The notes under the pieces: model-generated
The model's input: the letters and a program-made list of their open reading frames with translations, nothing else
What the model was told of the DNA's origin: nothing
The model's database searches: none
In this document: positions 36,643-56,002 of the stretch, piece by piece
How positions within the stretch are numbered: the first letter of the stretch is position 1
Layout: the number at the start of each line of letters is the position of its first letter
Program-made: the position numbers and the translations under genes
Assembly: GCF_029945965.1 (NCBI RefSeq)
Contig: NZ_JAQSDO010000005.1
Location: forward strand, 2,279 to 66,278
Reading direction: 5' to 3'
Length of the DNA: 64,000 nucleotides
From: Thermomonas sp.
Lineage (GTDB): Bacteria; Pseudomonadota; Gammaproteobacteria; Xanthomonadales; Xanthomonadaceae

Positions 36643-37655
36643 GTGCGTTGCTGGCGATGTTGTCGATTGAAGGGTTCGCCTGGCCATGGTTGCTCGCAGC
36701 CTTGCCGCTGCCCTTGCTGGTGCATGTGCTGGTGCCTGCACGCAAGAATAGCGGTGCCGCACTGCGGGTGCCGTGGGCTGATCGCGTGCAGCGCATTGCT
36801 GCCGCCGGCGATGGGGCGGTGCGGGTGCATGGGTTCCGCTGGCTGGCATTCCTGGCTTGGTGCCTGCTGTGTATTGCTGCCGCGCGCCCGCAGCAACTCG
36901 GCCCGCCGATTGCGCCGCCACAAGTGGGTCGTGACTTGATGCTGGCGGTCGACCTGTCGGCGAGCATGGGCGAAGAAGACATGCAGCTCGGTGGTCGCAT
37001 GGTTGATCGGCTGACCGCGGCCAAGGCCGTGCTGTCCGATTTCCTCGACCGTCGCGCAGGCGATCGGGTTGGGTTGATCGTGTTTGGCGAACGCGCCTTT
37101 GCGCTGACTCCGCTGACCCTGGATCGCGACAGCGTGCGCGACCAGCTTGGCGACAGCGTGGTCGGGCTGGCCGGGCGCGCAACCGCGATTGGCGATGCCA
37201 TCGCGCTGGCAACCAAACGGCTTCAGCCGAAAGAACATGCGAATGGTTCTTCGAAACAGCACGTCCTGATCCTGCTTACCGACGGCGTGAACACCGCTGG
37301 CACGCTGGATCCTGAAAAGGCCGCCAAGATTGCACGAGACAGTGGTGTGCGCATCCACGCGATCGCGTTCGGTGGCAATGGCAGCAGCATGTCGGTGTTC
37401 GGTTTCCAGTTGCCCATGGGTGGCGATGATGTTGACGAGGCCGGCTTGCGGCGCATCGCTGCGTTGACGGGTGGCCGGTTCTTCCGTGCGCGCGACACCG
37501 ACGACCTGGCCGGCATCTATGCTGAAATCGACAAGCTCGAACCGTTACAACGGCAGGGCCGTGCGGTACGCCCGAAGATCGAGCGATATCCGCTGCCGCT
37601 GGGAGCAGCACTGTCGCTCGGCTTGCTTGTGCTGGTGTTGGGGCGACGTCGATGA
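36639..37655 (+). CDS. vWA domain protein (BatA-like)
   Basis: FAWPWLL, MIDAS DLSASM, TAIGDA, LLTDG and TGGRFFRARD. Confidence 0.92.
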   Translation: MSALLAMLSIEGFAWPWLLAALPLPLLVHVLVPARKNSGAALRVPWADRVQRIAAAGDGAVRVHGFRWLAFLAWCLLCIAAARPQQLGPPIAPPQVGRDLMLAVDLSASMGEEDMQLGGRMVDRLTAAKAVLSDFLDRRAGDRVGLIVFGERAFALTPLTLDRDSVRDQLGDSVVGLAGRATAIGDAIALATKRLQPKEHANGSSKQHVLILLTDGVNTAGTLDPEKAAKIARDSGVRIHAIAFGGNGSSMSVFGFQLPMGGDDVDEAGLRRIAALTGGRFFRARDTDDLAGIYAEIDKLEPLQRQGRAVRPKIERYPLPLGAALSLGLLVLVLGRRR

Positions 37656-39535
37656 ACGCCTTGCTGGCCAGCATCGCCCAACTACATTTCCTGCGGCCCT
37701 GGTGGCTGCTTGGACTGTTGCTGTTGCCCGCCATTGCATGGTGGTGGCGTGTCGATGCGATGCGCGCCAACCCGTGGCAGTCCAATGTCGACGCGCACCT
37801 GCTGCCACATCTGCTGGTAGGTGATGTCGCCACGTCATCTCGCGCGTGGACGCGATGGTTGGGCCTGCTCGCCGCGGTGATCGCAGTACTGGCGATGGCC
37901 GGGCCGGCCTGGCAGAAGGACGAGCAGCCGTTGTGGCAAAGCAAGGCGCCTCTGGTGGTTGCGCTTGATCTTTCCAGCAGCATTCTTGCCAGTGACCTGC
38001 CGCCTTCGCGCCTGCCGCAGGCACGCGCGAAACTCGCGACATTGCTGCGCGAACGTGCGGGCGGCCAGGTCGCCTTGGTCGCGTATGCAGGCGATGCCTA
38101 CACGGTCGCGCCGTTGACCGAAGACGCGGCCAATGTCGCCTTGTTCCTGGATGCCCTGAGCCCGGATGTGATGCCCGAAGACGGCAAGCGCGCGGATCGT
38201 GCGATCGCATGGTCACGCAACCTGTTGCAACAGGCCGGCTTCGCCAATGGCGAGATCCTGCTGCTTACTGATCATGCCGATGCAGCGGCGGTGGGCGTCG
38301 CGGCCAAGGCACATCTGGCCGGCTACCGGGTGTCGGCATTGGGCCTTGGCACGGCGCAGGGCGGCACGTTCGATACCGGCGCCGGCTTGGGCCAGGCGCG
38401 GCTGGATGCTGCAAGCCTGCAGAGGCTGGCCAGTAGTGGTGGTGGCAGCTACCAGACGCTGACCGTCGATGATGCAGACTTGCGCGCATTGGGCGTGCTG
38501 GATCCGCAAGCTGATAGTGGCGCCGCAGCACGTGGCGAAAAAATCGCCAGCTGGCGCGATGGCGGTTTTTGGCTGCTGCCGCTGGTCATGCTGCTGGCGT
38601 TGCCGCTATTCCGCCGCGGCGCCGGCATGATGGCGGCGGGGATACTCGTGCTTGCAGTGCTGTTGCCGCTGTCACCGGTACCGGCACGGGCTCAGACAGG
38701 CCCTGCCGCGCAGGCAAGTGCACCCCAGGCACAGAAGGCACAGGTCACGGGCCCATCCACGAGCAAACTGTGGAAGCGCAGCGACCAGCTGGATTACGCG
38801 GGCATGCAGCAAGGCATCGAGGCCTATCGCGAGAAAAATTACAAACAAGCGATCGAGCATTTTTCGGATCTGCACGGTGCCGATGCGCAGTACAACCTGG
38901 GCAATGCGCTGGCACAGGCTGGGCGCCTGGATGATGCGATTGCCGCTTATGATCGCGCGCTCAAACTGCAGCCCGAAATGCGTGATGCGGTTGAAAACCG
39001 CAGAGCAGTCGAGGCCGCACGCAAGCGCAAGCCGCCACCGGATGGCAAGTCGCAGCAGGACAAGCAGAAAAACTCGCAGCAGGACAAGCAGCAGAAGCCA
39101 GGGCAAGGCGAGCAACAAGACAAGCCGCAAGGCAAACAGGACGACAAACAGCAAGACCAGCACGGCGAGGGCGGCCAGGATTCGCAGCCGAAGCAAGGGC
39201 AGGCGCAGCCCGGTAAACAGGATCAACAAGTCGATCCGTCCAAGCCTGGGCAGTCGCCATCGAAACAGGATGCGCCGCAACCACAGGATGCGAAGTCGCA
39301 GGCTGATGCCGATGCCGCACAACGCAAGCGCATGCAGGAGGCTCTAGGCAAACAGACACCGGCAGACAAGCCCGGTAAACAGACCAAAGCACAATCCGAG
39401 ACCGCCGAACAGCGCGAGCGCCGCCTCGCCAACCAGGCGCAGTTGCAACGCGTTCCCGACGATCCCGGTGCGCTGCTGCGGGCAAGGTTCCGGCTCGAAT
39501 ACCAGCGCCGACAGCAGCTGGATGAAGGGCCGTGA
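37652..39535 (+). CDS. vWA + TPR protein (BatB/BatC-like) with a Gln/Lys-rich tail
   Basis: HFLRPWWLL, MIDAS DLSSS, TPR YNLGNALAQAGRLDDAIAAYDRAL, a low-complexity Q/K/D tract and DDPGALLRARF. Confidence 0.9.
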   Translation: MNALLASIAQLHFLRPWWLLGLLLLPAIAWWWRVDAMRANPWQSNVDAHLLPHLLVGDVATSSRAWTRWLGLLAAVIAVLAMAGPAWQKDEQPLWQSKAPLVVALDLSSSILASDLPPSRLPQARAKLATLLRERAGGQVALVAYAGDAYTVAPLTEDAANVALFLDALSPDVMPEDGKRADRAIAWSRNLLQQAGFANGEILLLTDHADAAAVGVAAKAHLAGYRVSALGLGTAQGGTFDTGAGLGQARLDAASLQRLASSGGGSYQTLTVDDADLRALGVLDPQADSGAAARGEKIASWRDGGFWLLPLVMLLALPLFRRGAGMMAAGILVLAVLLPLSPVPARAQTGPAAQASAPQAQKAQVTGPSTSKLWKRSDQLDYAGMQQGIEAYREKNYKQAIEHFSDLHGADAQYNLGNALAQAGRLDDAIAAYDRALKLQPEMRDAVENRRAVEAARKRKPPPDGKSQQDKQKNSQQDKQQKPGQGEQQDKPQGKQDDKQQDQHGEGGQDSQPKQGQAQPGKQDQQVDPSKPGQSPSKQDAPQPQDAKSQADADAAQRKRMQEALGKQTPADKPGKQTKAQSETAEQRERRLANQAQLQRVPDDPGALLRARFRLEYQRRQQLDEGP

Positions 39536-41205
39536 GCGCGAACCTGCGCCAGGCGTGGATACACGCATGCATTGCACTGATGTTGTTGGCATGCACGCTG
39601 CCTGCATTCGCGCAGACGCGTGCATGGCTGGATCGCGAACAGGTGACCTACGGCGAGACTGCCACCCTCAACATCGAGACCGACAGCTCCGTTCAGCAGA
39701 TCGACTATGCGCCGCTGGCCGCGAACTTCGAGATCGCCGGGCAGACCGTGCGCCGTAGTTTCGAACGGGTAAACGGGAAATCCAGCACGCATTCGCTGTT
39801 CGCGGTCGGCATCCGCCCGCGCGGACCCGGCGTAGTCACGGTGCCGGCGTTACGCGTCGGCAATTCCAGCACTGAACCGCTGCGGATGACGATCATGCCT
39901 GCTTCGGTGCAAAAAGCCAGCAGCGATGCCGATGCCTTCGTGGAAACCGAGGTCGATGCCGACCACCCTTACGTGCAGCAGGCGGTTGGCATGGTGGTGC
40001 GGCTGTTTGTCGGGGTGAACTTGTTGTCTGGCCAGTTGGACCAGGACCAGCCACCCGGCACCAGCCTGCAGCAGGTCGGTGAAGACCTGCGTTACCAGCG
40101 GCAAATCGACGGTCGCCGCTACAGCGTGATCGAACGCCGCTACCTGCTGATCCCCGAACGCAGCGGCGACTTGCTGATTCCCGGCGCACGTTTCAACGGG
40201 CAGTCGGTGAGCGATTTCTTCGACGGCGCATTCGGCGATGGTCGCAAGCCGTTGTCTGCCGCGGCGCCGGCCAAGCTGCTGCAGGTACAAAAGATCCCGG
40301 CCAATGCGCCGCAGCCATGGCTGCCCTTGCGTGACTTGCGGTTGCGCTATGTGCAGGACCCCAAGCAGGCGCGCGCGGGTGTTGCAGCAACCGTCGAATT
40401 GGAAATGATCGCTGACGGTGCCAGCGCCAGCCAGTTGCCGGCGCTGGTATTTCCGCCAACGAAGGATGCGCAGGTATTCGCCGATCCGCCGCAAACCGAT
40501 GTGCAATTGGTCGATGGACGTCCGCGGGCCACATTGCGCCTGCGGATTTCCATCGTGCCGTTGCATGCCGGAACGCTGAGCCTGGCAGGACCGAGCGTTG
40601 ACTGGTGGGATGCCACGCAAGGCGTTGCGCGCACTGCCACGTTGCCGCCGTTGACGCTGCAGGTTGCACCGGGAGCTGCGACTGTGGCTGCAGACGCTAC
40701 TGGCGCTTCGCAACCGACCACAGGCATTGCAGCACGGCAGGACAGGAAGTCGCCGGTGGCGCAAGCCTTTGCCGGTTTCAGGCAGGTACTGCCGTGGCTG
40801 GCAGCGATGCTTGGACTTGCCGTGTTGCTGGGCGGATGGTGGTTCGCACGGCATCGGAAAACCCGGGTAGATGCCCTCGCCGTGACCCCACCGACCACGA
40901 TTGGCGCAGCGCCTAAAGCACTGTCGTTGGCTGATGCGCTCAAGGCAGGTGGGCTTGCCGGTATCGCCGAAGCGCTCTGCAACGCAGCGGGCCTGCCCGG
41001 CGACGACCTGGATACGCTGCGCATGCAATTGGACGATGCCGGCCAAGTCGCCGCGGTGGGCCGATTGCAGGCTGCGCGCTGGGGAAGTGGCGACGCGACC
41101 GCGGCGCTTGCCTCGTTGCGGGCTGCCTTCGGCAAAGGCCTGCGCCTGCGCCGGAAGAATCGTCAGGCCAAAGCACTGTTACCGCCTTTGTATCCGCAGT
41201 CCTGA
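39532..41205 (+). CDS. BatD family protein
   Basis: Signal peptide, RAWLDRE, HPYVQQAV, YSVIERRYLLIPERSG, WWDATQ and a C-terminal TM ending LPPLYP. Confidence 0.88.
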   Translation: MSANLRQAWIHACIALMLLACTLPAFAQTRAWLDREQVTYGETATLNIETDSSVQQIDYAPLAANFEIAGQTVRRSFERVNGKSSTHSLFAVGIRPRGPGVVTVPALRVGNSSTEPLRMTIMPASVQKASSDADAFVETEVDADHPYVQQAVGMVVRLFVGVNLLSGQLDQDQPPGTSLQQVGEDLRYQRQIDGRRYSVIERRYLLIPERSGDLLIPGARFNGQSVSDFFDGAFGDGRKPLSAAAPAKLLQVQKIPANAPQPWLPLRDLRLRYVQDPKQARAGVAATVELEMIADGASASQLPALVFPPTKDAQVFADPPQTDVQLVDGRPRATLRLRISIVPLHAGTLSLAGPSVDWWDATQGVARTATLPPLTLQVAPGAATVAADATGASQPTTGIAARQDRKSPVAQAFAGFRQVLPWLAAMLGLAVLLGGWWFARHRKTRVDALAVTPPTTIGAAPKALSLADALKAGGLAGIAEALCNAAGLPGDDLDTLRMQLDDAGQVAAVGRLQAARWGSGDATAALASLRAAFGKGLRLRRKNRQAKALLPPLYPQS

Positions 41206-41257: not shown

Positions 41258-42568
41258 ATGAGTGAAGCCAAGGCCGGCGACGGCAAGCTGCAGCTGCACT
41301 GGAAGATGCTGATTGGCTTCATTGCCGGCTTGGGGTTGGGCCTGGTTGCACATTACGTCTCCGGCGCCGATGCGGGATGGGTGCAGTGGTTGACGACTTA
41401 TGTCACCCAACCCGCGGGTACCTTGTTCCTGCGCCTGATCTTCATGCTGATCATCCCGCTGCTGTTTTCGGCGCTGATCATGGGCGTGGCGGAAATGGGC
41501 GACGTGCGTTCGCTCGGCCGCGTCGGCTGGAAGACGCTGGGCTACACCGTGGTGGCCTCAGGGATCGCGGTCGTGCTGGGCCTGGTGCTGGTCAATTGGC
41601 TCAAGCCCGGTGCCGGCGTGGATCCGGCTGCGGCACAAGCAATGCTGGCGCAGGGCGCCGACCGCGCGCAGGCCATCGTCAGTGGCAACAGTGGCCAGAT
41701 GAAGGGCATCGACATGTTGCTCGGGATCGTCCCGGACAACGTGATCAAGGCAGCGGCGGACAACACGATCCTGGCGGTGATGTTCTTCTCGCTGATGCTC
41801 GGTATTGGTTTGGTGCTCACCCGCAGCAAGGCAACCGAAGTCCTGTTGCTGGGAATCCAGGGGCTGTTCGAAGTATCGATGACCCTGATCGGACTGGTCA
41901 TCCGGTTGGCCCCGTATGCGGTGTTCTGCTTCATGTTCAACCTGGCCGCGCTGTTCGGCTGGGATCTTCTACGCAGCCTTGGCGCCTACGTCGGCGTGGT
42001 GGTGTTGGCACTGGCGATCCACATGTTCGTGGTTTATTCGCTGATGTTGAAGTTCCTGGCCGGCTGGTCACCGCCGAAGTTCTTCAAGGGCGTGCAGGAA
42101 GCGATGGTGATGGCGTTCTCGACCGCGTCGAGCAATGCCACCCTGCCGGTTGCATTGCGCGTGGCCGACGAGAAACTGCACCTGCCGCGCAATGTATCGC
42201 GCTTCGTGCTGACCGTCGGTGCCACCGCCAACCAGAACGGCACCGCCCTGTTCGAGGGCGTCACCGTGCTGTTCCTGGCCCAGTTCTTCGGCGTCGACCT
42301 GAGTCTGATGCAACAGGTGACGGTGATGTTCGTCTGCATCCTCGGCGGTATCGGCACCGCCGGCGTGCCGGCAGGATCGCTACCGGTGGTCGCCCTGATC
42401 TGCGGAATGGTCGGCGTGCCGCCGGAAGGGATCGGCCTGATCCTGGGCGTTGATCGCTTCCTGGACATGTGCCGGACCACGCTCAATGTCACCGGCGATC
42501 TGATGCTGGCCACCATCGTGTCGAAGGACGAAGTGGATGCGCGAAGCCGCTCCCCGATAGCCGGGTAG
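41258..42568 (+). CDS. Dicarboxylate/amino acid:cation symporter (DAACS)
   Basis: FSTASSNATLP, GATANQNGTALF, GIGTAGVP and DRFLDMCRTTLNVTGD. Confidence 0.95.
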   Translation: MSEAKAGDGKLQLHWKMLIGFIAGLGLGLVAHYVSGADAGWVQWLTTYVTQPAGTLFLRLIFMLIIPLLFSALIMGVAEMGDVRSLGRVGWKTLGYTVVASGIAVVLGLVLVNWLKPGAGVDPAAAQAMLAQGADRAQAIVSGNSGQMKGIDMLLGIVPDNVIKAAADNTILAVMFFSLMLGIGLVLTRSKATEVLLLGIQGLFEVSMTLIGLVIRLAPYAVFCFMFNLAALFGWDLLRSLGAYVGVVVLALAIHMFVVYSLMLKFLAGWSPPKFFKGVQEAMVMAFSTASSNATLPVALRVADEKLHLPRNVSRFVLTVGATANQNGTALFEGVTVLFLAQFFGVDLSLMQQVTVMFVCILGGIGTAGVPAGSLPVVALICGMVGVPPEGIGLILGVDRFLDMCRTTLNVTGDLMLATIVSKDEVDARSRSPIAG

Positions 42569-45916: not shown

Positions 45917-46043
45917 GCATGCGTGTGCGACGAGGTGCATGTCCGGCAATCGCGGTTGCCGGCGGGAATTGTGCTTCGGCTTCCCTGTCACATCCTTCGG
46001 TCAATGGCTGCGGGCCGGGGGTTTGGGTGACGGATAGAGAACG

Positions 46044-46739
46044 ATGGCCGAACTGATCGAGTTGCATGCTGTCCGCCGTCGCTATGCCATGGACGGGCAG
46101 GTGGTGGACGCGCTTGCCGGCATCGACCTGCACATTCGTGCTGGCGAATTCATCGCGATTACTGGAGCCTCTGGCTCGGGCAAGTCGAGCCTGCTCAATA
46201 TCCTGGGCTGCCTGGATCGCCCGACCGAGGGCCGTTACCTGATCGAGGGGCTGGATGTCGCTGGCATGGATGATGAGGCCGCCAGTGACATCCGCAACCG
46301 TCGCATCGGCTTCGTGTTCCAGAGTTTCCACTTGCTGCCGCGCCTGACCGTGCTGGAAAACGTGCTGCTGCCGCTGCGCTTCCATCGTCAACCGCCGCAG
46401 GATGCAGACGCACATGCACGTGAACTCCTACGCCAGGTCGGGCTGCAAGATCGCATGGCGCATCGGCCGACGGAATTGTCGGGCGGGCAGATGCAGCGTG
46501 CTGCAATCGCCCGTGCGCTGGTGCTGCGTCCGGCGATCCTGCTGGCTGACGAGCCCACCGGCAACCTGGATTCCAAGAGCGCAGCGGACGTGCTGCGCCT
46601 GATCGAAGGCGTGCATGCCGGCGGCCAGACCGTAGTGATGGTCACCCACGACCATGACATCGCCGCGCGCGCGGCGCGCCAGATCCGTCTGCATGACGGC
46701 AGGATCGAATATGACGTGCATCAGCATGCGGCGCACTGA
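46044..46739 (+). CDS. ABC transporter ATP-binding protein (MacB/LolD-type)
   Basis: GASGSGKS, IGFVFQSFHLL, LSGGQMQR, LADEPTGNLD and VTHD. Confidence 0.95.
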   Translation: MAELIELHAVRRRYAMDGQVVDALAGIDLHIRAGEFIAITGASGSGKSSLLNILGCLDRPTEGRYLIEGLDVAGMDDEAASDIRNRRIGFVFQSFHLLPRLTVLENVLLPLRFHRQPPQDADAHARELLRQVGLQDRMAHRPTELSGGQMQRAAIARALVLRPAILLADEPTGNLDSKSAADVLRLIEGVHAGGQTVVMVTHDHDIAARAARQIRLHDGRIEYDVHQHAAH

Positions 46740-47751
46740 GCTGCGCGCCGCATTCGCAGCCTGCCTGCTGCTGGCGGCTGCATGGCCGGCCGTGGCCGGA
46801 ACCGCGACCGTGCTCACCGGCGAGGTGCAGGCGGTCGATGCGCAGACCATTTACACGCCGGAGTCGAATTCGTCACCGGTGGTGATCCGCTACTTCATTC
46901 CCGAAGGCACGCAGGTCAAGAAAGATGACGTCGTGCTGCGCCTCGACCCCGGCCAGTCCACGAGCCAGGTGCGTGAGCTCGAGGCACAGATCGAACAAAC
47001 CCGTGCACGCGCAGCCAAGGAGTTGGCGGAGTTGAGGGTCAAGTCGGTCGATGCCGAACTGGCACTTGGCGATGCCGATGCCGCGTTGGCCACAGCAAGG
47101 ATCGACGCGAAGATTCCGCGCGAGCTGATCTCGAGCCTGGATTTTGACCGTTATCAGGGCGAACTTGATCGTGCCACTCGCGAAGCTGCGCTCAAGCGCG
47201 CCGAGTTCACTGATGCGCGTGCTGCGGTCGAGCGCCGCGGCCGCGATGGCGCACTGGAAGTGGAGAAGCTGCAAGTGCAGCGCGACTATCACGCCTTGCG
47301 CATGCTGACTGCGGAGGTGCGCGCGGATCGCGACGGCGTCGTCGTGCACGGCTTCAACCAGGGCTGGCTGGAAGGACGGATCGACGAGGGTTCCTCGACC
47401 ATGCCCGGCAGCAAGGCTGGGCAAGTCGTCAGCGGCGGCGCGATGCGCGTGCGCGCCTGGGCGCTGGAACCGGACCGTCGGAACCTGCATGTCGGCCAGG
47501 ACGTGCAGTTGGCCTTCGACGCCTATCCGGGCCACGCCCAGCCCGGCCGAATCACGGCCATTGCCGGCGCACCGGACCGCAAGCCGGAATGGGGCGAGGG
47601 CCGCTACTTCACCATCGACATCGACATGCGCCAGCAGGGTGCGCTCAAGCTGCTACCAGGCATGAGCGTGCGGGTGACTGCGCCGAGCAATGGCCAAGGA
47701 ACGGGCCAGCCAACGGGCCAGCCACCAAGCACGGGAGCAGCGCAACGATGA
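46726..47751 (+). CDS. Periplasmic adaptor (membrane fusion protein) 1
   Basis: Signal peptide (..WPAVA|G), lipoyl half IPEGTQVKKDDVV, long helical hairpin, VRADRDGVV and LLPGMSVRV. Confidence 0.85.
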   Translation: MRRTELRAAFAACLLLAAAWPAVAGTATVLTGEVQAVDAQTIYTPESNSSPVVIRYFIPEGTQVKKDDVVLRLDPGQSTSQVRELEAQIEQTRARAAKELAELRVKSVDAELALGDADAALATARIDAKIPRELISSLDFDRYQGELDRATREAALKRAEFTDARAAVERRGRDGALEVEKLQVQRDYHALRMLTAEVRADRDGVVVHGFNQGWLEGRIDEGSSTMPGSKAGQVVSGGAMRVRAWALEPDRRNLHVGQDVQLAFDAYPGHAQPGRITAIAGAPDRKPEWGEGRYFTIDIDMRQQGALKLLPGMSVRVTAPSNGQGTGQPTGQPPSTGAAQR

Positions 47752-48710
47752 AACGCCAGCTGCTTTGCGTCTGCCTGTTGTTGTGCGCGACCACCGCCTT
47801 CGCCGCGACGCTCAAGATCGACGGCGAGGTCTATGCCCAGCGCACCGCCTCGCTGATGCCACCTGCGGTCGATGATCTCTGGCAATTCAACATCACCCAG
47901 CTTGCTGCCGACGGCGATACGGTCAAGCAGGGCGAAGTCGTGCTTGCCTTCGATGGCAGCGAATTGATGAAGCGGCTTACCGAAAAGCAGAGCCTGCTCA
48001 AGGAGAAGCAGAGCCAGTTCGACAAACTGCTGCTGGAACTGGCCGAGCGCCAGCGCAACGAACACCTGAGTACCGCCGAGGCGCGTTCCAACCGCGAGAA
48101 GGCGCAGCGCAAGACCGCGCAGCCGGAGGAGATCATCGGCGGCATTCCGTACCGCAAGTTGATGGTCGCGCGCCAGCAAGCCGAACGCCGTGCAACACTG
48201 GTCGAGCGCCGCGAGCAACTGAGCGCGGAACAGCGTGTGCAGGAAAGGCGTTTGCTCGAATCCGAGGTCGCGCAGTTGCAGCGCGAAGTGCTGGAGTTGC
48301 AGGCATCACTGGCGGCGATGCGCGTCACCGCACCACGCACCGGGCTGATGATGCACAAGAGCAACTGGCAGGGTGAGAAGTTCGATGTCGGCTCGCAAGT
48401 GTGGAAGGGGATGTCGGTGGCCGAGATCCCCGACACCACGACGCTTGCAGTGCGCGCGCAACTGCCCGAGCGCGAGCTGACCCGGGTGCGGATCGGCGGG
48501 TCGGCACGGATAGTGATCGAAGGCGGTGTCGGCAGTGCGCTGAAAGGCCGTGTCACCGCGATTGGTCGCACCGTGCGCAGCAAATCGCGGGTGCAGCCGA
48601 TCCCGGTGATCGACGTGGAAATCAAACTCGACAATCCGCGGGCGAAGCTCAAACCCGGCCAGCCGGTACGGGTGGAATTGACTGTCGCCGATGCCGGGGC
48701 ATCGCCATGA
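47748..48710 (+). CDS. Periplasmic adaptor (membrane fusion protein) 2
   Basis: Signal peptide (..TAFA|A), DGDTVKQGEVVL, long hairpin, VTAPRTG, LAVRAQLPE and LKPGQPVRV. Confidence 0.88.
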   Translation: MKRQLLCVCLLLCATTAFAATLKIDGEVYAQRTASLMPPAVDDLWQFNITQLAADGDTVKQGEVVLAFDGSELMKRLTEKQSLLKEKQSQFDKLLLELAERQRNEHLSTAEARSNREKAQRKTAQPEEIIGGIPYRKLMVARQQAERRATLVERREQLSAEQRVQERRLLESEVAQLQREVLELQASLAAMRVTAPRTGLMMHKSNWQGEKFDVGSQVWKGMSVAEIPDTTTLAVRAQLPERELTRVRIGGSARIVIEGGVGSALKGRVTAIGRTVRSKSRVQPIPVIDVEIKLDNPRAKLKPGQPVRVELTVADAGASP

Positions 48711-49981
48711 ACAGCCGCAAGCTATTGCTTGCGTGCATCGTGCTTGCGCTGTCCTCCTGCAGCGAAGACGTGCCGGGGCCGGTGCTTGAAACTGTCGCCC
48801 CAGCCAATATCGTGCTCAGTGTGCAGGCTGATGGCGAATTGAAATCCTCCAAAGCCACGCCGCTGATGGTGCCGGGCCAGAACTGGTCGTCTCGCCGGCT
48901 AACCTGGATGGCGCCGGAAGGCAGCCTGGTGAAGAAGGGCGAGCTGATCGCGCGTTTTTCCGCCGATGAAGGCAAGCAGCAGTTGGCGCAGGCGCTGATC
49001 GACCTGCAGCGCAACGCGCTGGCGCACGCGGCCAAGCAGGACGAGCTTGAAGCCGGTCGTGACCGCGTCGACGTCGACCTGGCCAAGGTCGGTACCGATC
49101 TCGGCATTGCCCGTCGCTACGCCGACGCCGACCTCAGCACGATGGCGCGCAATGACGTGCTCGACGCGGTGCAGGATGCGAGGTTCCTAGGCGCCAAGCG
49201 CGACAACATGCAATGGAAGCGTGGCCAGTTCGGCGTGCGCGGCGGTGCCGAGCTGGCGGTGCTGGACACACAGCGCGCAACGTATTCGATCAATGCGAAG
49301 ACGCGCCAGGACGACCTTGATGCGCTGGAGTTGCGCGCGCCACACGACGGCGTGCTGATGCTCAGCGCCAACTGGTCCGGCGAAAAGCTGAGCGTGGGCA
49401 GCAACCTGTTCGCGGGCACCGACTTCGGCAGCCTGCCCGACCCCGGCGGGATGGAAGTCGAGCTGACCCTGCCTCAGATCGAGGCGCAGGGCCTGCGCCT
49501 TGGCATGCTGGTGGAAGTGCATCCGGTGGGCCGGCCCGCGCAGAAGATCACCAGCAAGCTCAGCTGGGTGGCGAGCGCCGCCAAGCCGCGTAGCCGCAGC
49601 AACCCGGTGAAGGTGCTGACGATGAAGGCGCCGATACCGGCCGATGCGATCCGCAATTACGGGCTGGTCCCCGGCCAGAACATGCAGGCCACGATCATCT
49701 TGCTGCGCGCCGACAATGCATTGAGCGTGGCCAACGTTGCTGTGGAAAGTGACGACGGCCGCAGCTACGTGCAGGTGCGCGACGGCGATGGTTTCAAGCG
49801 TCGCGAAGTGACGCTTGGCATACGCGACACTGCGCGTTCGCAGGTGCTCAAGGGGCTGAAGGCAGGCGAGAACGTACGGCTGACCAGCGGTGTTGCACCC
49901 GAATCCGACGATGCCGGAGCGACTGCAGGGGACGGCAAGGACAACAAGCCTGCGGGCGATGACGGGGCGACCAAGACATGA
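48707..49981 (+). CDS. Periplasmic adaptor (membrane fusion protein) 3, predicted lipoprotein
   Basis: Lipobox LSSC, EGSLVKKGELIA, LRAPHDGV, LVPGQNMQA and a MacA-like membrane-proximal domain RREVTLG...VLKGLKAGENV. Confidence 0.88.
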   Translation: MNSRKLLLACIVLALSSCSEDVPGPVLETVAPANIVLSVQADGELKSSKATPLMVPGQNWSSRRLTWMAPEGSLVKKGELIARFSADEGKQQLAQALIDLQRNALAHAAKQDELEAGRDRVDVDLAKVGTDLGIARRYADADLSTMARNDVLDAVQDARFLGAKRDNMQWKRGQFGVRGGAELAVLDTQRATYSINAKTRQDDLDALELRAPHDGVLMLSANWSGEKLSVGSNLFAGTDFGSLPDPGGMEVELTLPQIEAQGLRLGMLVEVHPVGRPAQKITSKLSWVASAAKPRSRSNPVKVLTMKAPIPADAIRNYGLVPGQNMQATIILLRADNALSVANVAVESDDGRSYVQVRDGDGFKRREVTLGIRDTARSQVLKGLKAGENVRLTSGVAPESDDAGATAGDGKDNKPAGDDGATKT

Positions 49982-51231
49982 TTCAGCGCGTGCTCCGGTA
50001 CCTGCCGCAGATTTGGCGCGAGGCGATCGACGAACTGTGGCGTCGCCGCTTGCGCACGCTGCTCACCTTGCTTGGCATGATTTTCGGGGTCGGCGCGATC
50101 GTGGCGATGCAGGCGGTCGGCGAAGGCAGCAAGCGCGAGGCACTGCGGCTGGTCGAGAGCCTGGGCCTTCACAACCTGATCGTTGAAGCCAAGCAGCAGG
50201 ATGAGGACGTGCTGAAGGAAACCCGCGCGCGCAGTTTGGGCCTGAATGTTGCCGACGCGCGCGCCGCGCTGGCAGTGGTGCCGGGTGCGGAGCGCTTCGC
50301 CGCGGAAAAACCGGTGAAGACCCATTCGGTATTCAGCGATTTTGGCAGCGGCAATGCGCAGGCCAGTGGCGTCAGTGCAGACTGGTTCGCCCTGTCCTCG
50401 TTGCAGGTCGCACGCGGTCGCGCGCTCACTGCGCAAGACGATGCCGAACTGGCGCCGGTGGCCGTGCTCGGCCACCAGGCCGCTACTGACCTGTTCCCCA
50501 AGACTGATCCGATCGGCGACCACGTCAAGGTCAACCACGTGTGGCTGGAAGTGGTCGGTGTGCTGGCCGATCGTGACCTCGGCAAGGACAGTTTCGAAGG
50601 TGTGCCGTTGGGACTGGAGAGCAATCGGGTGTACCTGCCCTTGGCCAGCGCGCGGGCGCGCTTCAAGTTCCAGCAGCAGGAAGACGAAGTTGACCGCTTC
50701 CTGTTGCGCCTGCGCGATCCGGAACAGCTTGCCGCAGGCGCGAGTGTCCTCGCTGCAATGCTCGACCAGCGCCACGCTGGCATGCGCGATTACACGCTGG
50801 TGGTGCCACAGCAGTTGTTCCGCCAACACCAACAGACCCAGCGCATCTTCCAGGTGGTGATGGGCGCGATTGCTGGCGTCAGTCTGCTGGTCGGCGGCAT
50901 CGGCATCATGAACATCATGCTCGCCAATGTTCTCGAACGACGCCGCGAGATCGGCCTGCTGCGCGCCCTCGGCGCGCGCCGTCGCGATGTGGTCGCACAG
51001 TTCCTGCGCGAGGCCACCGTGATCTGCGTCGTGGGCGCGCTGCTGGGCCTTCTATTCGGCACCGCGCTCGCCTATATGATCGCCACGTTCGCTGGCTGGC
51101 AGGTGGCATGGGCACCCCTGCCGATCCTGCTCTCGGCCGCATTCTGCGCGCTGGTTGGCCTGGCCTTCGGCGTGTATCCGGCTCGGCAGGCCGCGCAACT
51201 GGATCCGATCACCTCCTTGCGGCAGGAGTGA
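49978..51231 (+). CDS. MacB-type ABC transporter permease
   Basis: RTLLTLLGMIFGVGAIVAM, LLVGGIGIMNIMLANVLERRREIGLLRALGA and FGVYPARQAAQLDPI. Confidence 0.95.
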   Translation: MIQRVLRYLPQIWREAIDELWRRRLRTLLTLLGMIFGVGAIVAMQAVGEGSKREALRLVESLGLHNLIVEAKQQDEDVLKETRARSLGLNVADARAALAVVPGAERFAAEKPVKTHSVFSDFGSGNAQASGVSADWFALSSLQVARGRALTAQDDAELAPVAVLGHQAATDLFPKTDPIGDHVKVNHVWLEVVGVLADRDLGKDSFEGVPLGLESNRVYLPLASARARFKFQQQEDEVDRFLLRLRDPEQLAAGASVLAAMLDQRHAGMRDYTLVVPQQLFRQHQQTQRIFQVVMGAIAGVSLLVGGIGIMNIMLANVLERRREIGLLRALGARRRDVVAQFLREATVICVVGALLGLLFGTALAYMIATFAGWQVAWAPLPILLSAAFCALVGLAFGVYPARQAAQLDPITSLRQE

Positions 51232-51246
51232 TTTCCGCTATTCGAG

Positions 51247-52452
51247 TCAATCGTGCAGGCGGATCCGGATGCGCGTCGCGCTTTCGAATTTCACCTGCCA
51301 GCCAAGTCGCTGTGCGAGCCGGTCGAGCAGGGCGGAGCCACGGCCGATGTCGCTGCGTGCGGTGCTGGTGTCATCGTTTATCGAAGCGGCATCGAGCTGC
51401 TTGTCGATCAGCAATTCGTGGTCACTCAGGCTGACATGGATGACCGCATCCGGCGATTGCTGGGCGACCTTGCGCAGCAGGCCAGAGACCAGCAGCAGCG
51501 CTTCGCGACGCGGCAGTTGCAGGCTGCCACTCGCTTCAATGGCGATGCGCGACTGCTTGTCGTGTAGAGCGATGTGTGCGGCTTCCTTGAGGAAAGTGAG
51601 TGCATCCATCGCTTCGGGCTGAAGTTCGCTGCGCCGGGCCACGCCGAGCAGGGCTTCGATCAGGTGGCCCATGTCGCGCACGCCACGCTCCAGCCGTCGC
51701 AGGCGCGAAACATGCGCAGGATCATTGCCGCGATCATCATTGAGAGCATCCAGCATCACTTCGGTCACACCCTGCACCACTGATAGCGGCGTGCGCAGTT
51801 CGTGGCTGGCATCGGCGAAGAACGCCTGCTCATGCGTGTCGGCATCGACCAGGCGGGCCTGGTAGGCATCGATGGCATGCGCCAGGCGGCCGAGTTCGTC
51901 CTTGCTGGTGTGCGCGGCCAACCGGCTGCGGCGTGGCTGCACCGGTAGCGCATCGACGTCATCGACCAGGCGCTGCACGGGCCGCAAGGCAAAACCCGCA
52001 AACCACCAGCCCAGTCCACCGGCCAGTGCGGTTCCGAGCACGACCATGCCGGCGAGGAACAGGTTCAGGAGCTCCTCCAGCTCTTCGATGTCGCTCAGGT
52101 CGATCACGAAGATCAACCGCCCGGCGCTGGTGTCGAACACGCCGACAGTGGTGCCATTGTCGCTGGCATCCTCGTGGATGCCCGGCGGCAACGCACGGTA
52201 TTTCGGTGGCGTGCGGGCCGCATTGGCCAGGTAGCCACTGAGGCGATGGGTCTGCGGCAGTTCTGCGGTCAGGTGGTTGGTGAGGCGCAGGCTGTAGTCC
52301 TCGGCTTGGCTCTGCAGGATTTCTGCAGCCAATGTGTCTCCATAGTCTCCGGTGATGCGGATGACCGCGGCCGAGAACACAAGGCTCAGCAGGAAACCGA
52401 GCAGGGTGAAGGCCAGCGCAACCCGGCGCCGCAGTGGCATGGGTATGTTCAC
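51247..52452 (-). CDS. ColS-like sensor kinase with a degenerate ATP-binding domain
   Basis: 2 TM, HAMP and H box FFADASHELRTP are present; the N box and G1 box are not recognisable. Confidence 0.85.
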   Translation of the reverse strand: MNIPMPLRRRVALAFTLLGFLLSLVFSAAVIRITGDYGDTLAAEILQSQAEDYSLRLTNHLTAELPQTHRLSGYLANAARTPPKYRALPPGIHEDASDNGTTVGVFDTSAGRLIFVIDLSDIEELEELLNLFLAGMVVLGTALAGGLGWWFAGFALRPVQRLVDDVDALPVQPRRSRLAAHTSKDELGRLAHAIDAYQARLVDADTHEQAFFADASHELRTPLSVVQGVTEVMLDALNDDRGNDPAHVSRLRRLERGVRDMGHLIEALLGVARRSELQPEAMDALTFLKEAAHIALHDKQSRIAIEASGSLQLPRREALLLVSGLLRKVAQQSPDAVIHVSLSDHELLIDKQLDAASINDDTSTARSDIGRGSALLDRLAQRLGWQVKFESATRIRIRLHD

Positions 52453-53141
52453 GGTAATTCCACCAGGCGATAGCCGATGCCGCGGACGGATCGGATCATG
52501 GCCTGCGCAAAGGGCCGGTCGATCAGTACGCGCAGCTCATAGACTTGGGTGTGCAGTGCAGCGATGTCGCCGCCGTCATCGCCCCAGGCCACCTGCAGCA
52601 GGCGCTGGTGCGACGTCACCTTCGGGGCATCGCGCAACAAGGTGGCGAGGATGCTGCCCTGCAGTCGTGTCAAAGGAACCTTCCGGCCTTCGCGGGTGGC
52701 CAACATCGTGGCGGGATCGTAGCTGAGCCTGCCCAGCTCCAGGGTGTCGGATGCAGGTTGCACGCGCCGGTGCACGGCGCGGATGCGGGCTTCCAGCTCG
52801 CGCATCGCAAAGGGTTTCACCATGTAGTCGTCGGCGCCTTCGCCGAAGCCGCGCAGCTTGTCGTCAAGGGTGTCGCGCGCGGTCAGCATCAATACCGGCA
52901 CACCATGGCCGGCCGCGCGCAATTGCCGGCACAGGTCCAGGCCGTCCAGCCGCGGCAAGCCGAGGTCGAGCACGATCACGTCGAAGCCACCGCCCATCGC
53001 CCGCGCCAGTCCGGAGACGCCATCGCCACAGTGGTCCACCGCGTGGCCGCGGCGTTCCAGGAAATCCCAGATGTTGGCGGCGATGTCGTGCTGGTCCTCG
53101 ATGACGAGAACCCGCAGTCCGTTGCGGCTGTCGTTGGCCAT
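52449..53141 (-). CDS. ColR-like OmpR-family response regulator
   Basis: RVLVIEDQHDIAANIWDFL, VLDLGLP, LMLTARDTLDDKLRGF, KPF and SVRGIGYRL. Confidence 0.92.
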   Translation of the reverse strand: MANDSRNGLRVLVIEDQHDIAANIWDFLERRGHAVDHCGDGVSGLARAMGGGFDVIVLDLGLPRLDGLDLCRQLRAAGHGVPVLMLTARDTLDDKLRGFGEGADDYMVKPFAMRELEARIRAVHRRVQPASDTLELGRLSYDPATMLATREGRKVPLTRLQGSILATLLRDAPKVTSHQRLLQVAWGDDGGDIAALHTQVYELRVLIDRPFAQAMIRSVRGIGYRLVELP

Positions 53142-53219
53142 CGCGTGCTCCCGGAAACAGCCGACAGGGTGCCACGCATGAGGGCCGGGTGTGCATCGGG
53201 CTGTTGAACGAAGGGTGCG

Positions 53220-53249
53220 CTTAACGATGTGCTGAGATTTCACTCAGCA
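53220..53249 (+). promoter_or_regulatory. Candidate response-regulator binding site between the colR-like and LtaS-like genes
   Basis: CTTAAC-N5-GCTGAG-N5-ACTCAG at 11-bp period; also TGCTGAG-N6-CTCAGCA inverted repeat. A possible -10 TATCCT lies at 53269-53274. Confidence 0.5.
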
Positions 53250-53306
53250 TGCCTTACGCGCAGGCAGTTATCCTGCCCCTGCCGGATGCACCGGTGGGAG
53301 TTCGTC

Positions 53307-55232
53307 TTGATCCAGTCGCCCGTGATTCAATCGCCATTGCTGTCGCGTTTCCGGCCATTGCTGTGGCTGGGCCTGTGCTTCCTGTCCATTTCCATGTTGA
53401 CCCGGCTCGCACTTCTGGTCGCAACCGGTGGCGGCGTGCCGGTGTCGCCGGGCTATTGGCTGTATGCCTTCGCGGTCGGCCTGGGCTACGACCTGCTGAC
53501 CTTCGTGTATTTCGCCTGGCCGCTGGTGCTGCTGTTGTGGTTGCTGCCGAGGCGCTGGCTGGCGCGGCGGCCGGGTATGGCCTTGGTTGACGGACTGAGC
53601 CTGCTGCTGCTGTTCGTGCTGCTGTTCGTGGCGGTGTCGGAATGGACGTTCTGGGAGGAGTTCCAGGCGCGCTTCAACTTCATCGCAGTCGATTACCTGG
53701 TCTATACGACCGAGGTGATCGGCAATATCCGCGAGTCGTATCCGGTGGGTTGGATCTTCTCTGGACTGGCGGCGCTGGGCATTGCCGTGTTCGCCGCCAC
53801 ACGGCGCTGGCGGCAGGTGCGCAACGACACAGCTCGCTTCGGCGCACGTACGCTGGTGGTCGCCGGCTGGCTGGCGCTGAGCGTGCTCGGCACCTGGCTG
53901 GTCACCGGCGAGATGAAGGACCGCACCGAGAACACCTACGTCAACGAACTCGCCGGCAACGGCATGTATCAATTCTTCGCGGCATATCGCAGTGCATCGC
54001 TGGACTACGACCGCTACTACCGCACGCTGCCGATCGACGAGGCCTTCGCGCAGGTGCGCAAGCAATTGTCGACGCCGGACGCGACCTTCGATGGCCCGAC
54101 TGGCATCGCGCGGCATATCCACAACGCCGCGCCCGAGCGTCGCCTCAACGTAGTGCTGATCAGCGTGGAAAGCCTGTCCGCTGAATATTCCGGCACCTAT
54201 GGGCGTGAGCACAGCCTGACACCGCAACTGGATGCGCTGACCAAGGACAGCCTGTTGTTCACCGACCTATACGCCAATGGCACCCGCACCGTGCGCGGAC
54301 TTGAAGCATTGGCACTGTCGGTGCCGCCGACGCCGGGCGAATCCATCGTCAAGCGCGAGCACAACGAAGGCCTGTTCAGCCTGGCCAGCGTGTTCAACGC
54401 GAAGGGCTACACCTCACAGTTCCTGTATGGCGGCTATGGCGCGTTCGACAACATGAACTACTTCTTCGGCCACAACGGCTACGAAGTGCACGATCGCGAG
54501 GAAATCCCCAAGGAAAGCATCCACCAAGCCAATATCTGGGGCGTGGCCGATGAAGATTTGTACACGATGGCGATGCAGCAGTTCGATCGCGTGCATGCCT
54601 CGGGAAAACCATTTTTCGCGCATGTCATGACCACGTCGAACCATCGCCCATATACGTTCCCGGTTGGGCGCGGACCATGGCCGCAGGGCAAGCGCGAGAG
54701 CGCGGTTGCCTACACCGACTGGGCGATCGGGGATTTCCTGCGTCGCGCGCGTAGCCATCCGTGGTTCGCCAACACCATCTTCGTGATCACCGCCGACCAC
54801 TGTGCCTCGAGCGCAGGCAAGGCGGCACTGCCGGTGTTCCGCTATCGCATCCCGATGTGGGTGTATGCGCCCGGACATGTCGCGCCTGGTCGCTTCACCG
54901 AGATGATCAGCCAGGTCGACATCGCGCCGACCCTGCTGGGCATGCTGGGCATGGATTACGACAGCCAGTTCTATGGCGTCGATGTATTCCAGCGTCCACC
55001 GGACAGCGCACGCGCCTTCATTGGTACCTACCAACTGCTGGGCTATCTGCGCCACGGAAAATTGGTGCAGCTATCGCCGCATCGCAAGGTTGATACGGTG
55101 CGCCCGGCTTATGAAAGCGACCAAGAGCAGCCAGTGATTGCCGATGATCCGCAGTTGACCCTTGAGGCGGTCAGCAACTACCAGACCGCGGCATATCGCT
55201 TCGAGCACGGACAGATGAAGGTTGCAAAATGA
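53307..55232 (+). CDS. LTA synthase family (alkaline phosphatase/sulfatase superfamily) membrane protein
   Basis: Several N-terminal TMs, ISVESLS, catalytic Thr in NGTRTVRG, TTSNHRPY and ITADH. Start uncertain (TTG at 53307 after GGAG). Confidence 0.9.
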   Translation: MIQSPVIQSPLLSRFRPLLWLGLCFLSISMLTRLALLVATGGGVPVSPGYWLYAFAVGLGYDLLTFVYFAWPLVLLLWLLPRRWLARRPGMALVDGLSLLLLFVLLFVAVSEWTFWEEFQARFNFIAVDYLVYTTEVIGNIRESYPVGWIFSGLAALGIAVFAATRRWRQVRNDTARFGARTLVVAGWLALSVLGTWLVTGEMKDRTENTYVNELAGNGMYQFFAAYRSASLDYDRYYRTLPIDEAFAQVRKQLSTPDATFDGPTGIARHIHNAAPERRLNVVLISVESLSAEYSGTYGREHSLTPQLDALTKDSLLFTDLYANGTRTVRGLEALALSVPPTPGESIVKREHNEGLFSLASVFNAKGYTSQFLYGGYGAFDNMNYFFGHNGYEVHDREEIPKESIHQANIWGVADEDLYTMAMQQFDRVHASGKPFFAHVMTTSNHRPYTFPVGRGPWPQGKRESAVAYTDWAIGDFLRRARSHPWFANTIFVITADHCASSAGKAALPVFRYRIPMWVYAPGHVAPGRFTEMISQVDIAPTLLGMLGMDYDSQFYGVDVFQRPPDSARAFIGTYQLLGYLRHGKLVQLSPHRKVDTVRPAYESDQEQPVIADDPQLTLEAVSNYQTAAYRFEHGQMKVAK

Positions 55233-56002
55233 CGCGGGGCGATATGCCGGTTGCGGCCAGCGAGGCTTTGGCCAAGGTTCCGCAAGTCACCCTGGTTTTC
55301 TGGTTGATCAAGATCGCCGCAACCACCTTGGGCGAAACCGGCGGCGATGCGGTGTCGATGTCAATGGGTCTCGGTTATCTGGTGGGCACCGCGATCTTCG
55401 GTGTGATATTCGCGCTTGCGGTCTACGCGCAAATCCGCGCCCGCCAGTTCCACCCGTTCCTGTACTGGACGACCATCATTGCAAGCACCACGGTGGGGAC
55501 GACCCTGGCCGACTTCGCCACGCGATCGATGGGCATTGGTTATCCCGGGGGATCGACCTTGCTGCTGGTGTTGCTGGGCGCATCGTTGTTCGTGTGGTAC
55601 CGGACCTTGGGCACGGTTGCAGTGGGCACTGTCGGCGATCCGAAGTCCGAGATGTTCTACTGGCTGACGATCATGTGTTCGCAAACACTTGGCACTGCAC
55701 TCGGCGACTGGGTGGCGGATACCGCAGGCCTTGGTTATACCGGTGGCATGCTCATCTTCGGTTCGCTGCTGGCGATCACCGCGGCATTTTATTTCTGGGG
55801 CCGCCTGTCGCACACATTGCTGTTCTGGGCGGCGTTCATCCTGACCCGACCACTGGGCGCAGTGCTGGGTGATTTCCTCGACAAGCCGGTTGCCAATGGC
55901 GGCCTGGCGTTGAGCCGCTATTCGGCATCGTTGGGATTGCTGGTAGCGATCATCGGCATGATCCTGGTGTTCAAACAGAGGGCCGCCACGCGCGCGCACT
56001 GA
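55229..56002 (+). CDS. DUF347/COG4705 membrane protein
   Basis: KVPQVTLVFWLIKIAATTLGETGGD, YWTTIIASTTVGTTLAD and FWAAFILTRPLGAVLGD; 4-bp overlap with the upstream gene. Confidence 0.88.
   Translation: MTRGDMPVAASEALAKVPQVTLVFWLIKIAATTLGETGGDAVSMSMGLGYLVGTAIFGVIFALAVYAQIRARQFHPFLYWTTIIASTTVGTTLADFATRSMGIGYPGGSTLLLVLLGASLFVWYRTLGTVAVGTVGDPKSEMFYWLTIMCSQTLGTALGDWVADTAGLGYTGGMLIFGSLLAITAAFYFWGRLSHTLLFWAAFILTRPLGAVLGDFLDKPVANGGLALSRYSASLGLLVAIIGMILVFKQRAATRAH

Follow-up and report, generated by a model that had tools for sequence, protein, structure and literature searches.

A five-gene operon at positions 46,044–51,231 of a 64,000-nucleotide stretch of DNA from Thermomonas sp. (contig NZ_JAQSDO010000005.1; the whole stretch is hereafter called the window) encodes an ATP-binding cassette (ABC) ATPase, three periplasmic adaptor proteins, termed MFP1, MFP2, and MFP3, and a permease of the MacB type. 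The interpretation that we lean toward is that this locus encodes a MacB-type export pump with a single 2:2:2 hetero-hexameric adaptor ring over a MacB dimer, in which the ring would be built from three ancient specialized paralogues instead of six copies of one protein. The operon combines known parts in an undescribed, conserved composition with a clear structural rationale. The initial annotation of this DNA had regarded the architecture as lacking a characterized precedent, and no description of a three-adaptor MacB pump was found in full-text literature searches or in the 2021 and 2026 reviews of the field.

Conservation and Age of the Three-Adaptor Operon

All five genes lie on the forward strand and comprise a separate nucleotide-binding subunit of the MacB/LolD-like type (46,044–46,739; 231 aa; Pfam ABC_tran, E 1.7e-33), the secreted three-domain adaptors MFP1 (46,726–47,751; 341 aa; Pfam HlyD_3) and MFP2 (47,748–48,710; 320 aa; Pfam HlyD_3/HlyD_D23), the four-domain MacA-like lipoprotein adaptor MFP3 (48,707–49,981; 424 aa; Pfam HlyD_3/HlyD_D23), and the MacB-type (type VII ABC) permease (49,978–51,231; 417 aa; Pfam MacB_PCD and FtsX). 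The ATPase and MFP1 genes overlap by 14 nt, the MFP1/MFP2, MFP2/MFP3, and MFP3/permease junctions are 4-nt ATGA overlaps, and the five genes are translationally coupled. The NCBIfam assignments agree with those of Pfam for all five genes, and the overlapping operon described in the initial annotation is thus borne out by the coordinates and by both family databases.

Forty-one loci, chosen as carrying an MFP2 orthologue, were compared with the window, ranging from the same genus down to 25–30% identity; a profile search based on a close five-sequence MFP2 alignment yielded 17 loci, and most of the genomic context was obtained by genome searches. The gene order ATPase–MFP1–MFP2–MFP3–permease is conserved in 41 of 41 loci, none of which is short of an adaptor, and the protein at each position best matches the protein at the same position of the window. 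In a tree of 114 adaptors (38 loci) and seven other adaptors of the same Thermomonas genome, each adaptor forms its own clade with Shimodaira–Hasegawa-like approximate likelihood ratio test (SH-aLRT) values of 98 for MFP1, 96 for MFP2, and 100 for MFP3, and the internal branching is similar across the three clades. One clade per paralogue together with similar internal branching indicates that the triplication predates all of the sampled lineages. The identities to MFP1, MFP2, and MFP3 of the window are 87, 88, and 90% in the closest relative, 52, 53, and 52% in a Rhodanobacteraceae-like locus (L013), and 28, 32, and 29% in a distant locus (L016). On these values the three adaptors diverge at equal rates and none of them is decaying, and a recent duplication or decaying copies were rejected on the tree and the equal divergence.

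The nearest named relatives of the genome are metagenome-assembled genomes (MAGs), namely, a Thermomonas sp. MAG and a Lysobacterales MAG. The distribution of the operon was counted with MFP2 as the query in samples of genomes, which are draws from each taxon. MFP2 is present in 3 of 25 genomes of its own genus, at the family level in 42 of 250 genomes (21 of 64 genera), and across the order Lysobacterales/Xanthomonadales in 112 of 301 genomes (~37%), representing 39 of 87 genera and 9 of 12 families; named carriers include Lysobacter, Pseudoxanthomonas, Rhodanobacter, Dyella, and Frateuria. Beyond the order, an even sample of 400 genomes from the class added one carrier, and a sample of 400 from the phylum added two more, both gammaproteobacterial. 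To control for ascertainment, MFP3 was used as the query in the same 301 genomes; 110 were positive, 109 of them in common with the MFP2 set, and both adaptors are thus present in 109 of the 113 genomes positive for either. The remaining four are all fragmented drafts, with the hit at a contig end in two, and, these four aside, no genome keeping the MacA-like MFP3 without MFP2 was found in the 301-genome sample. The initial annotation had named relatives with only one or two adaptors, the others decaying, as a case that would speak against a three-adaptor system; neither the loci, nor the co-occurrence, nor the identities revealed such a relative.

Domain Composition of MFP1, MFP2, and MFP3

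The three adaptors share pairwise identities of only 25–29% and differ in their mode of anchoring and in their domain composition. Both MFP1 and MFP2 begin with signal-peptide-like segments, which end in AVA↓G in MFP1 and AFA↓A in MFP2 (cleavage was judged by eye from the AxA motifs), and both end immediately past the β-barrel. MFP1 consists of the lipoyl domain, a long α-hairpin, and the β-barrel, without a membrane-proximal domain or a lipobox; its orthologues are 310–358 aa long in 38 of 38 aligned loci, chance lipobox-like strings occur in two of them, and the AxA motif is conserved ahead of the first strand in the consensus of the fused proteins described below. The tail of MFP1 is Gly/Gln/Pro-rich (47,680–47,751), and no majority residue is seen in the tail columns of the family consensus. 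For the MFP2 family profile, the best solved relatives are MacA chains (E 2.5e-13).

Among the three adaptors, only MFP3 possesses an N-terminal lipobox (LSSC, with Cys18 invariant in 36 orthologues) and an extra C-terminal β domain. The AlphaFold2 model of MFP3, built from a 36-sequence alignment with a predicted local distance difference test score (pLDDT) of 88.2, is composed, in order, of an N-terminal strand, the lipoyl halves with a hairpin of 53 + 58 residues, the β-barrel, the C-terminal β domain, and a disordered acidic tail, and its N- and C-terminal β strands lie beyond the barrel. In a fold search, the model matched best to MacA chains of the assembled MacAB-TolC pump (9qgy_G and 5nik_D; E ~1e-22, 374–378 aligned columns). 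As judged from this model, which matches pump-assembled MacA over four domains, MFP3 is a MacA-like four-domain adaptor. The tail itself (49,890–49,981) is Asp/Gly/Ala-rich and ~30 aa long, is predicted to be disordered with pLDDT <50, and falls outside the kept consensus columns. These results sustain the initial proposals that one MacB-type pump is served by three dedicated adaptors, divergent paralogues of one another, and that, in the window, the membrane-proximal domain is confined to MFP3, the extra C-terminal β domain being seen there alone.

In a divergent clade of five loci (L016, L017, L019, L065, and L066), MFP2 is 385–393 aa long, and its C-terminus is extended by ~70 aa that align with MFP3's membrane-proximal part (for example, L016:7372–8541 on the minus strand, L017:8117–9286 on the plus strand, and L019:6860–8041 on the minus strand). 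A lipobox is also present in MFP2 of four of these five loci and absent from that of L019. The core clade, to which the window belongs, has lost both the lipobox and the C-terminal extension of MFP2. The extension is missing from MFP1 in every locus.

Equal Hairpins and Natural MFP1-MFP2 Fusions

The two lipoyl halves are separated by exactly 126 residues in 114 of 114 adaptor sequences from 38 loci, at identities down to ~25%. In the models, the two hairpin helices are 52 + 59 and 53 + 59 residues long in the MFP1 and MFP2 halves of a natural fusion and 53 + 58 residues long in MFP3, and MFP1, MFP2, and MFP3 each possess one family-specific conserved motif at the hairpin tip. Such an identical hairpin length is expected if all six tips of an adaptor ring must reach one partner in register.

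A single reading frame of ~635 aa, in which MFP2 is joined to the C-terminus of MFP1, replaces the two separate genes in 8 of the 41 loci (for example, L014:7914–9788, L015:7582–9489, L060:8011–9951, L062:8891–10831, and L064:8767–10683, all on the minus strand). A search with one fusion protein retrieved at least 415 fused MFP1-MFP2 proteins from the database, where they are labeled only as HlyD family; their sources include Rhodanobacter, Dyella, Frateuria, Fulvimonas, Silanimonas, Aquimonas, and Rudaea, and fusions are found in many Rhodanobacteraceae and some Lysobacteraceae. Because fused loci neighbor unfused ones in the tree (L062 beside L063, L064 beside L052, and L060 beside L057 and L059), fusion or fission must have occurred several times. 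Neither an MFP2-MFP3 fusion nor a triple fusion was present among the 120 matches listed, although the length filter would admit them. The natural fusion fixes the MFP1:MFP2 ratio at 1:1 and places the two adaptors in close proximity.

A short linker stands in place of the MFP2 signal peptide in the fusions. Mostly 21–35 residues (median 24) separate the end of the conserved PGMSVRV motif from the GE(I/V) motif of MFP2, and no hydrophobic segment or signal-peptide remnant was found in the linker. A natural fusion from a relative was modeled from a 122-sequence alignment with a pLDDT of 90.6 and a predicted template modeling score (pTM) of 0.80, the latter being high for a prediction of two modules, and each half of the model is one lipoyl-hairpin-barrel module. 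The best fold match of the halves is EmrA (E ~1e-13, template modeling score 0.63 on the target), followed by MacA and Spr0693, with EmrA and MacA matched over three domains; a fused TriA-TriB chain was not among the top 50 fold matches of the fusion model, in which only single modules were aligned. Since both chain ends of a module are located at the barrel end and the modules are more than 100 Å long, a linker of 10–20 residues permits a side-by-side arrangement, not head-to-tail stacking. An end-to-end extended conduit, which the initial annotation had offered as one of two possible arrangements, is therefore disfavored by the linker length and the equal hairpin length.

ATPase and Permease

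The best NCBIfam matches of the ATPase are LolD and the N-terminal half of MacB (E ~2e-69, below the equivalog cut-offs), which, together with the ABC_tran match, place it in the MacB/LolD/FtsE group; its identity across related operons is 51–94%. The permease matches MacB_PCD (E 3.6e-33, 116 bits against a cut-off of 27) and FtsX (E 4.5e-24, 85 bits against a cut-off of 25.5), and its closest solved relatives are MacB chains (5gko, 5nik, and 5lil), with E-values of 1e-46 to 1e-50 over residues 9–417. With its first transmembrane helix, its large core domain in the periplasm, and the FtsX helices bundled at its C-terminus, the permease has a MacB-type architecture and, being encoded by a single gene, is presumably a homodimer. 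The scores against the NCBIfam equivalogs of MacA and MacB are far under the cut-offs. Furthermore, a MacAB-TolC system in the strict sense has a single adaptor gene and a homo-hexameric adaptor, whereas three paralogous adaptor genes are present in 41 of 41 loci.

Proposed Assembly of the Pump

In the MacAB-TolC pump, a single MacB dimer is combined with a single MacA hexamer and a single TolC trimer (Greene et al. 2018, PMC5985334). When six adaptors sit on a transporter of two-fold symmetry, each MacB protomer has three non-equivalent adaptor positions. In the proposed assembly, two ATPases, two permeases, and two copies each of MFP1, MFP2, and MFP3 would be combined in equimolar amounts, and the six adaptors would form a single funnel, in the order 1-2-3-1-2-3, above the two-fold symmetric MacB dimer. 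MFP3, with its lipid anchor and membrane-proximal domain, may dock the ring on the permease's periplasmic domain, and the soluble MFP1 and MFP2 would occupy the remaining four positions, held at the pump only via MFP3. The six hairpin tips, in register, could then meet an unlinked TolC-family channel, and ATP-driven movements of MacB could expel a periplasmic or outer-leaflet substrate. A 2:2:2 ring would need all five products equally, which fits their translational coupling. The hetero-oligomer suggested in the initial annotation, with 2:2:2 as its example, is thus indirectly supported by the fusions, the identical hairpin length, the strict co-occurrence, and the equimolar translational coupling. 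We infer that the adaptors form a single ring with 2:2:2 stoichiometry, and also that the pump exports and engages an outer-membrane channel.

A more specific version, which we put forward tentatively and hold to be somewhat doubtful, is that the three paralogues fill the 1-2-3-1-2-3 positions with each fitted to one non-equivalent position, and that the funnel base has wide lateral openings. In that case, a membrane-proximal domain would be present on only two of six protomers (four of six in the divergent clade). Such a small number of membrane-proximal domains would leave wide lateral openings at the funnel base, which might admit bulkier periplasmic cargo than MacA-type rings.

Several points weigh against the 2:2:2 export pump. 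Only 1 of 41 loci has an outer-membrane channel gene in its flanks, and inspection of the three tip regions by eye gave no clear instance of the canonical RLS motif. An all-against-all BLAST of the flanking open reading frames of the 41 loci revealed no conserved gene beyond the five, and the absence of a conserved neighbor leaves no clue to the substrate. The predicted side-by-side packing of the fusion halves draws on two quantities only, the pTM and the linker length. In addition, a 1-2-3-1-2-3 ring is two-fold symmetric, and each paralogue would have to meet both kinds of TolC groove; a 3:3 ring of MFP1 and MFP2 would suit the three-fold TolC better.

Such a 3:3 ring, similar in principle to TriAB, is the foremost alternative, though an unlikely one: MFP1 and MFP2 would alternate as three heterodimers in the TolC-docking tunnel, with MFP3 outside it, acting on the periplasmic domain of MacB as a separate collar below, as an assembly factor, or as a lipoprotein that delivers substrate. 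This arrangement matches the three-fold symmetry of TolC and is favored by the observation that MFP1-MFP2 is the sole fusion type among the 120 matches listed, and the natural fusions have engineered parallels in the TriA-TriB and tandem AcrA fusions that the 2026 review cites. However, the hairpin of MFP3 has the same 126-residue span in 38 of 38 loci, which is hard to explain without a shared tip partner, and in the core clade a ring of MFP1 and MFP2 would possess neither a membrane-proximal domain nor an anchor to hold it on MacB. Moreover, a two-tier adaptor assembly is not described in the 2021 and 2026 reviews. Much less probable still is that the adaptors form interchangeable homo-hexamers by which one MacB motor couples to different outer-membrane channels or substrates. 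The six TolC-family genes in the genome and the conserved tip motif particular to each paralogue would suit that idea, but the MFP1-MFP2 fusion in hundreds of relatives forces both adaptors together, the co-occurrence and gene order are strict, and MFP1 and the core-clade MFP2, anchorless and without a membrane-proximal domain, could not dock alone in the manner of MacA; the single gains or losses of modules expected of interchangeable parts were not seen.

The system could also be imagined as a non-exporter that works by mechanotransmission, as in LolCDE or FtsEX, in which the adaptors would constitute a periplasmic cage without a TolC partner that serves the extraction, remodeling, or sensing of an envelope component. 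We consider this improbable. In its favor, 40 of 41 loci carry no linked outer-membrane channel gene, the RLS tip motif is not obvious by eye, and members of the MacB family with non-export roles are known (PMC5985334). On the other hand, adaptors contact the outer-membrane channel through their hairpins, which here are long, invariant in length, and conserved at the tips, and the best fold matches of MFP3 are the MacA chains of the assembled MacAB-TolC pump. The unlinked channel gene has a counterpart in E. coli, where MacAB likewise relies on an unlinked TolC.

Comparison with Known Pumps

Of the known systems, MacAB-TolC shares with this operon a permease with MacB_PCD and FtsX domains, the closest solved relatives of the permease being MacB chains, and a four-domain MacA-like adaptor, which corresponds to MFP3; by analogy, a dimer-hexamer-trimer stoichiometry may also be expected here. 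In E. coli, tolC is unlinked to macAB, and MacAB uses TolC; the channel gene is similarly unlinked in the present system. In contrast to the one adaptor of MacAB-TolC, three paralogues are present here, two of which lack a membrane-proximal domain and an anchor, and MFP3 is lipid-anchored, whereas MacA is held by a transmembrane helix. Furthermore, E. coli MacB fuses the ATPase to the permease, whereas the ATPase is encoded by a separate gene here. EmrA of the EmrAB-TolC system (4TKO and 8ZAL/8ZAR) resembles MFP1 and MFP2 in having the hairpin, lipoyl, and barrel domains without a membrane-proximal domain. EmrA is anchored through an N-terminal helix. It is a homo-hexamer that serves a major facilitator superfamily (MFS) transporter, whereas MFP1 and MFP2 appear to be cleaved, soluble, and ABC-partnered.

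In the 2021 and 2026 reviews, the sole pump named as having several types of adaptor is TriABC, which has two adaptors and a resistance-nodulation-division (RND) transporter. The TriABC-OpmH system of Pseudomonas aeruginosa also possesses several dedicated, non-equivalent adaptor paralogues (TriA and TriB) per transporter, and both systems have as many paralogues as there are adaptor positions on each transporter protomer, namely, two for the trimeric RND transporter and three for the dimeric MacB. Tandem-fusion adaptor constructs are cited as functional in the 2026 review, in parallel with the natural MFP1-MFP2 fusions. However, TriABC-OpmH is a proton-driven RND trimer with two paralogues, whereas the present transporter is not of the RND type and is an ABC transporter of the MacB type with three; there is no homology past the general adaptor fold, and the resemblance is one of principle only. 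Separate genes for the ATPase and the MacB-type permease, as seen here, also occur in Spr0693-0694-0695 of S. pneumoniae, YknXYZ of B. subtilis, and LitOPAI of Legionella (PMC11559062), each of which has a single adaptor. LitOPAI, which in addition encodes its own outer-membrane channel, was considered as a precedent and ruled out on account of its single adaptor (PMC11559062).

Genomic Surroundings

The operon follows a transketolase gene. In the intergenic region between them (45,917–46,043, read on the forward strand), a sigma-70 consensus scan found no promoter, and the consensus scan likewise revealed no notable internal promoter or terminator inside the operon. Further upstream in the window are genes for a VWA/TPR protein and a BatD-like protein, as in Bat aerotolerance-type operons (37,652–41,205), and for a DctA-type dicarboxylate symporter (41,258–42,568); the synteny of transketolase, BatD, and DctA is common to seven loci, within the family only.

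Downstream, positions 51,247–56,002 contain a histidine kinase and a response regulator gene, convergent with the operon, beyond which lie a sulfatase-family (EptA-like) gene in divergent orientation and a DUF347 gene. The convergence on this ColRS-like pair had initially been taken as a hint of envelope-stress sensing, which, like the large substrate suggested alongside it, is conjecture. The ColRS-like/EptA-like/DUF347 block adjoins the pump only in the window and its closest relative (L011), and it is beside the pump neither in the same-genus locus L012 nor in any other locus; a conserved regulatory link was rejected on this restricted adjacency, and the block is probably an independent lipid A modification module.

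Elsewhere in the genome, outside the operon, there are six genes of the TolC (OEP) family and 16 other adaptor genes, all of which are singletons, including those beside other MacB-type permeases. Nine further MacB_PCD-containing regions are present. Other adaptor, MacB_PCD, or TolC-family genes are located on contigs C2, C5, C6, C8, C9, C12, C15, and C20, and C15:55739–59781 holds channel, permease, and adaptor genes together.

Significance

The division of labor among the adaptors of tripartite pumps is still debated, including which protomers grip the transporter, which ones open the outer-membrane channel, and in what way a hexamer is matched to both a dimer below and a trimer above. The main genetic handle on these questions so far has been TriABC, in which two adaptors serve an RND trimer. 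With three adaptors that are fixed and not interchangeable, two of them often fused, each position could be mutated separately, and a three-adaptor pump would offer a rigid, asymmetric target for cryo-electron microscopy. The operon is present in roughly a third of the sampled Lysobacterales/Xanthomonadales genomes, where the adaptors are annotated only as “HlyD family secretion protein,” and it thus represents an abundant envelope machine of soil and water bacteria without an assigned role. Should the more specific version of the assembly hold, six adaptor positions shared among three specialized paralogues would be a first among natural tripartite ABC pumps.

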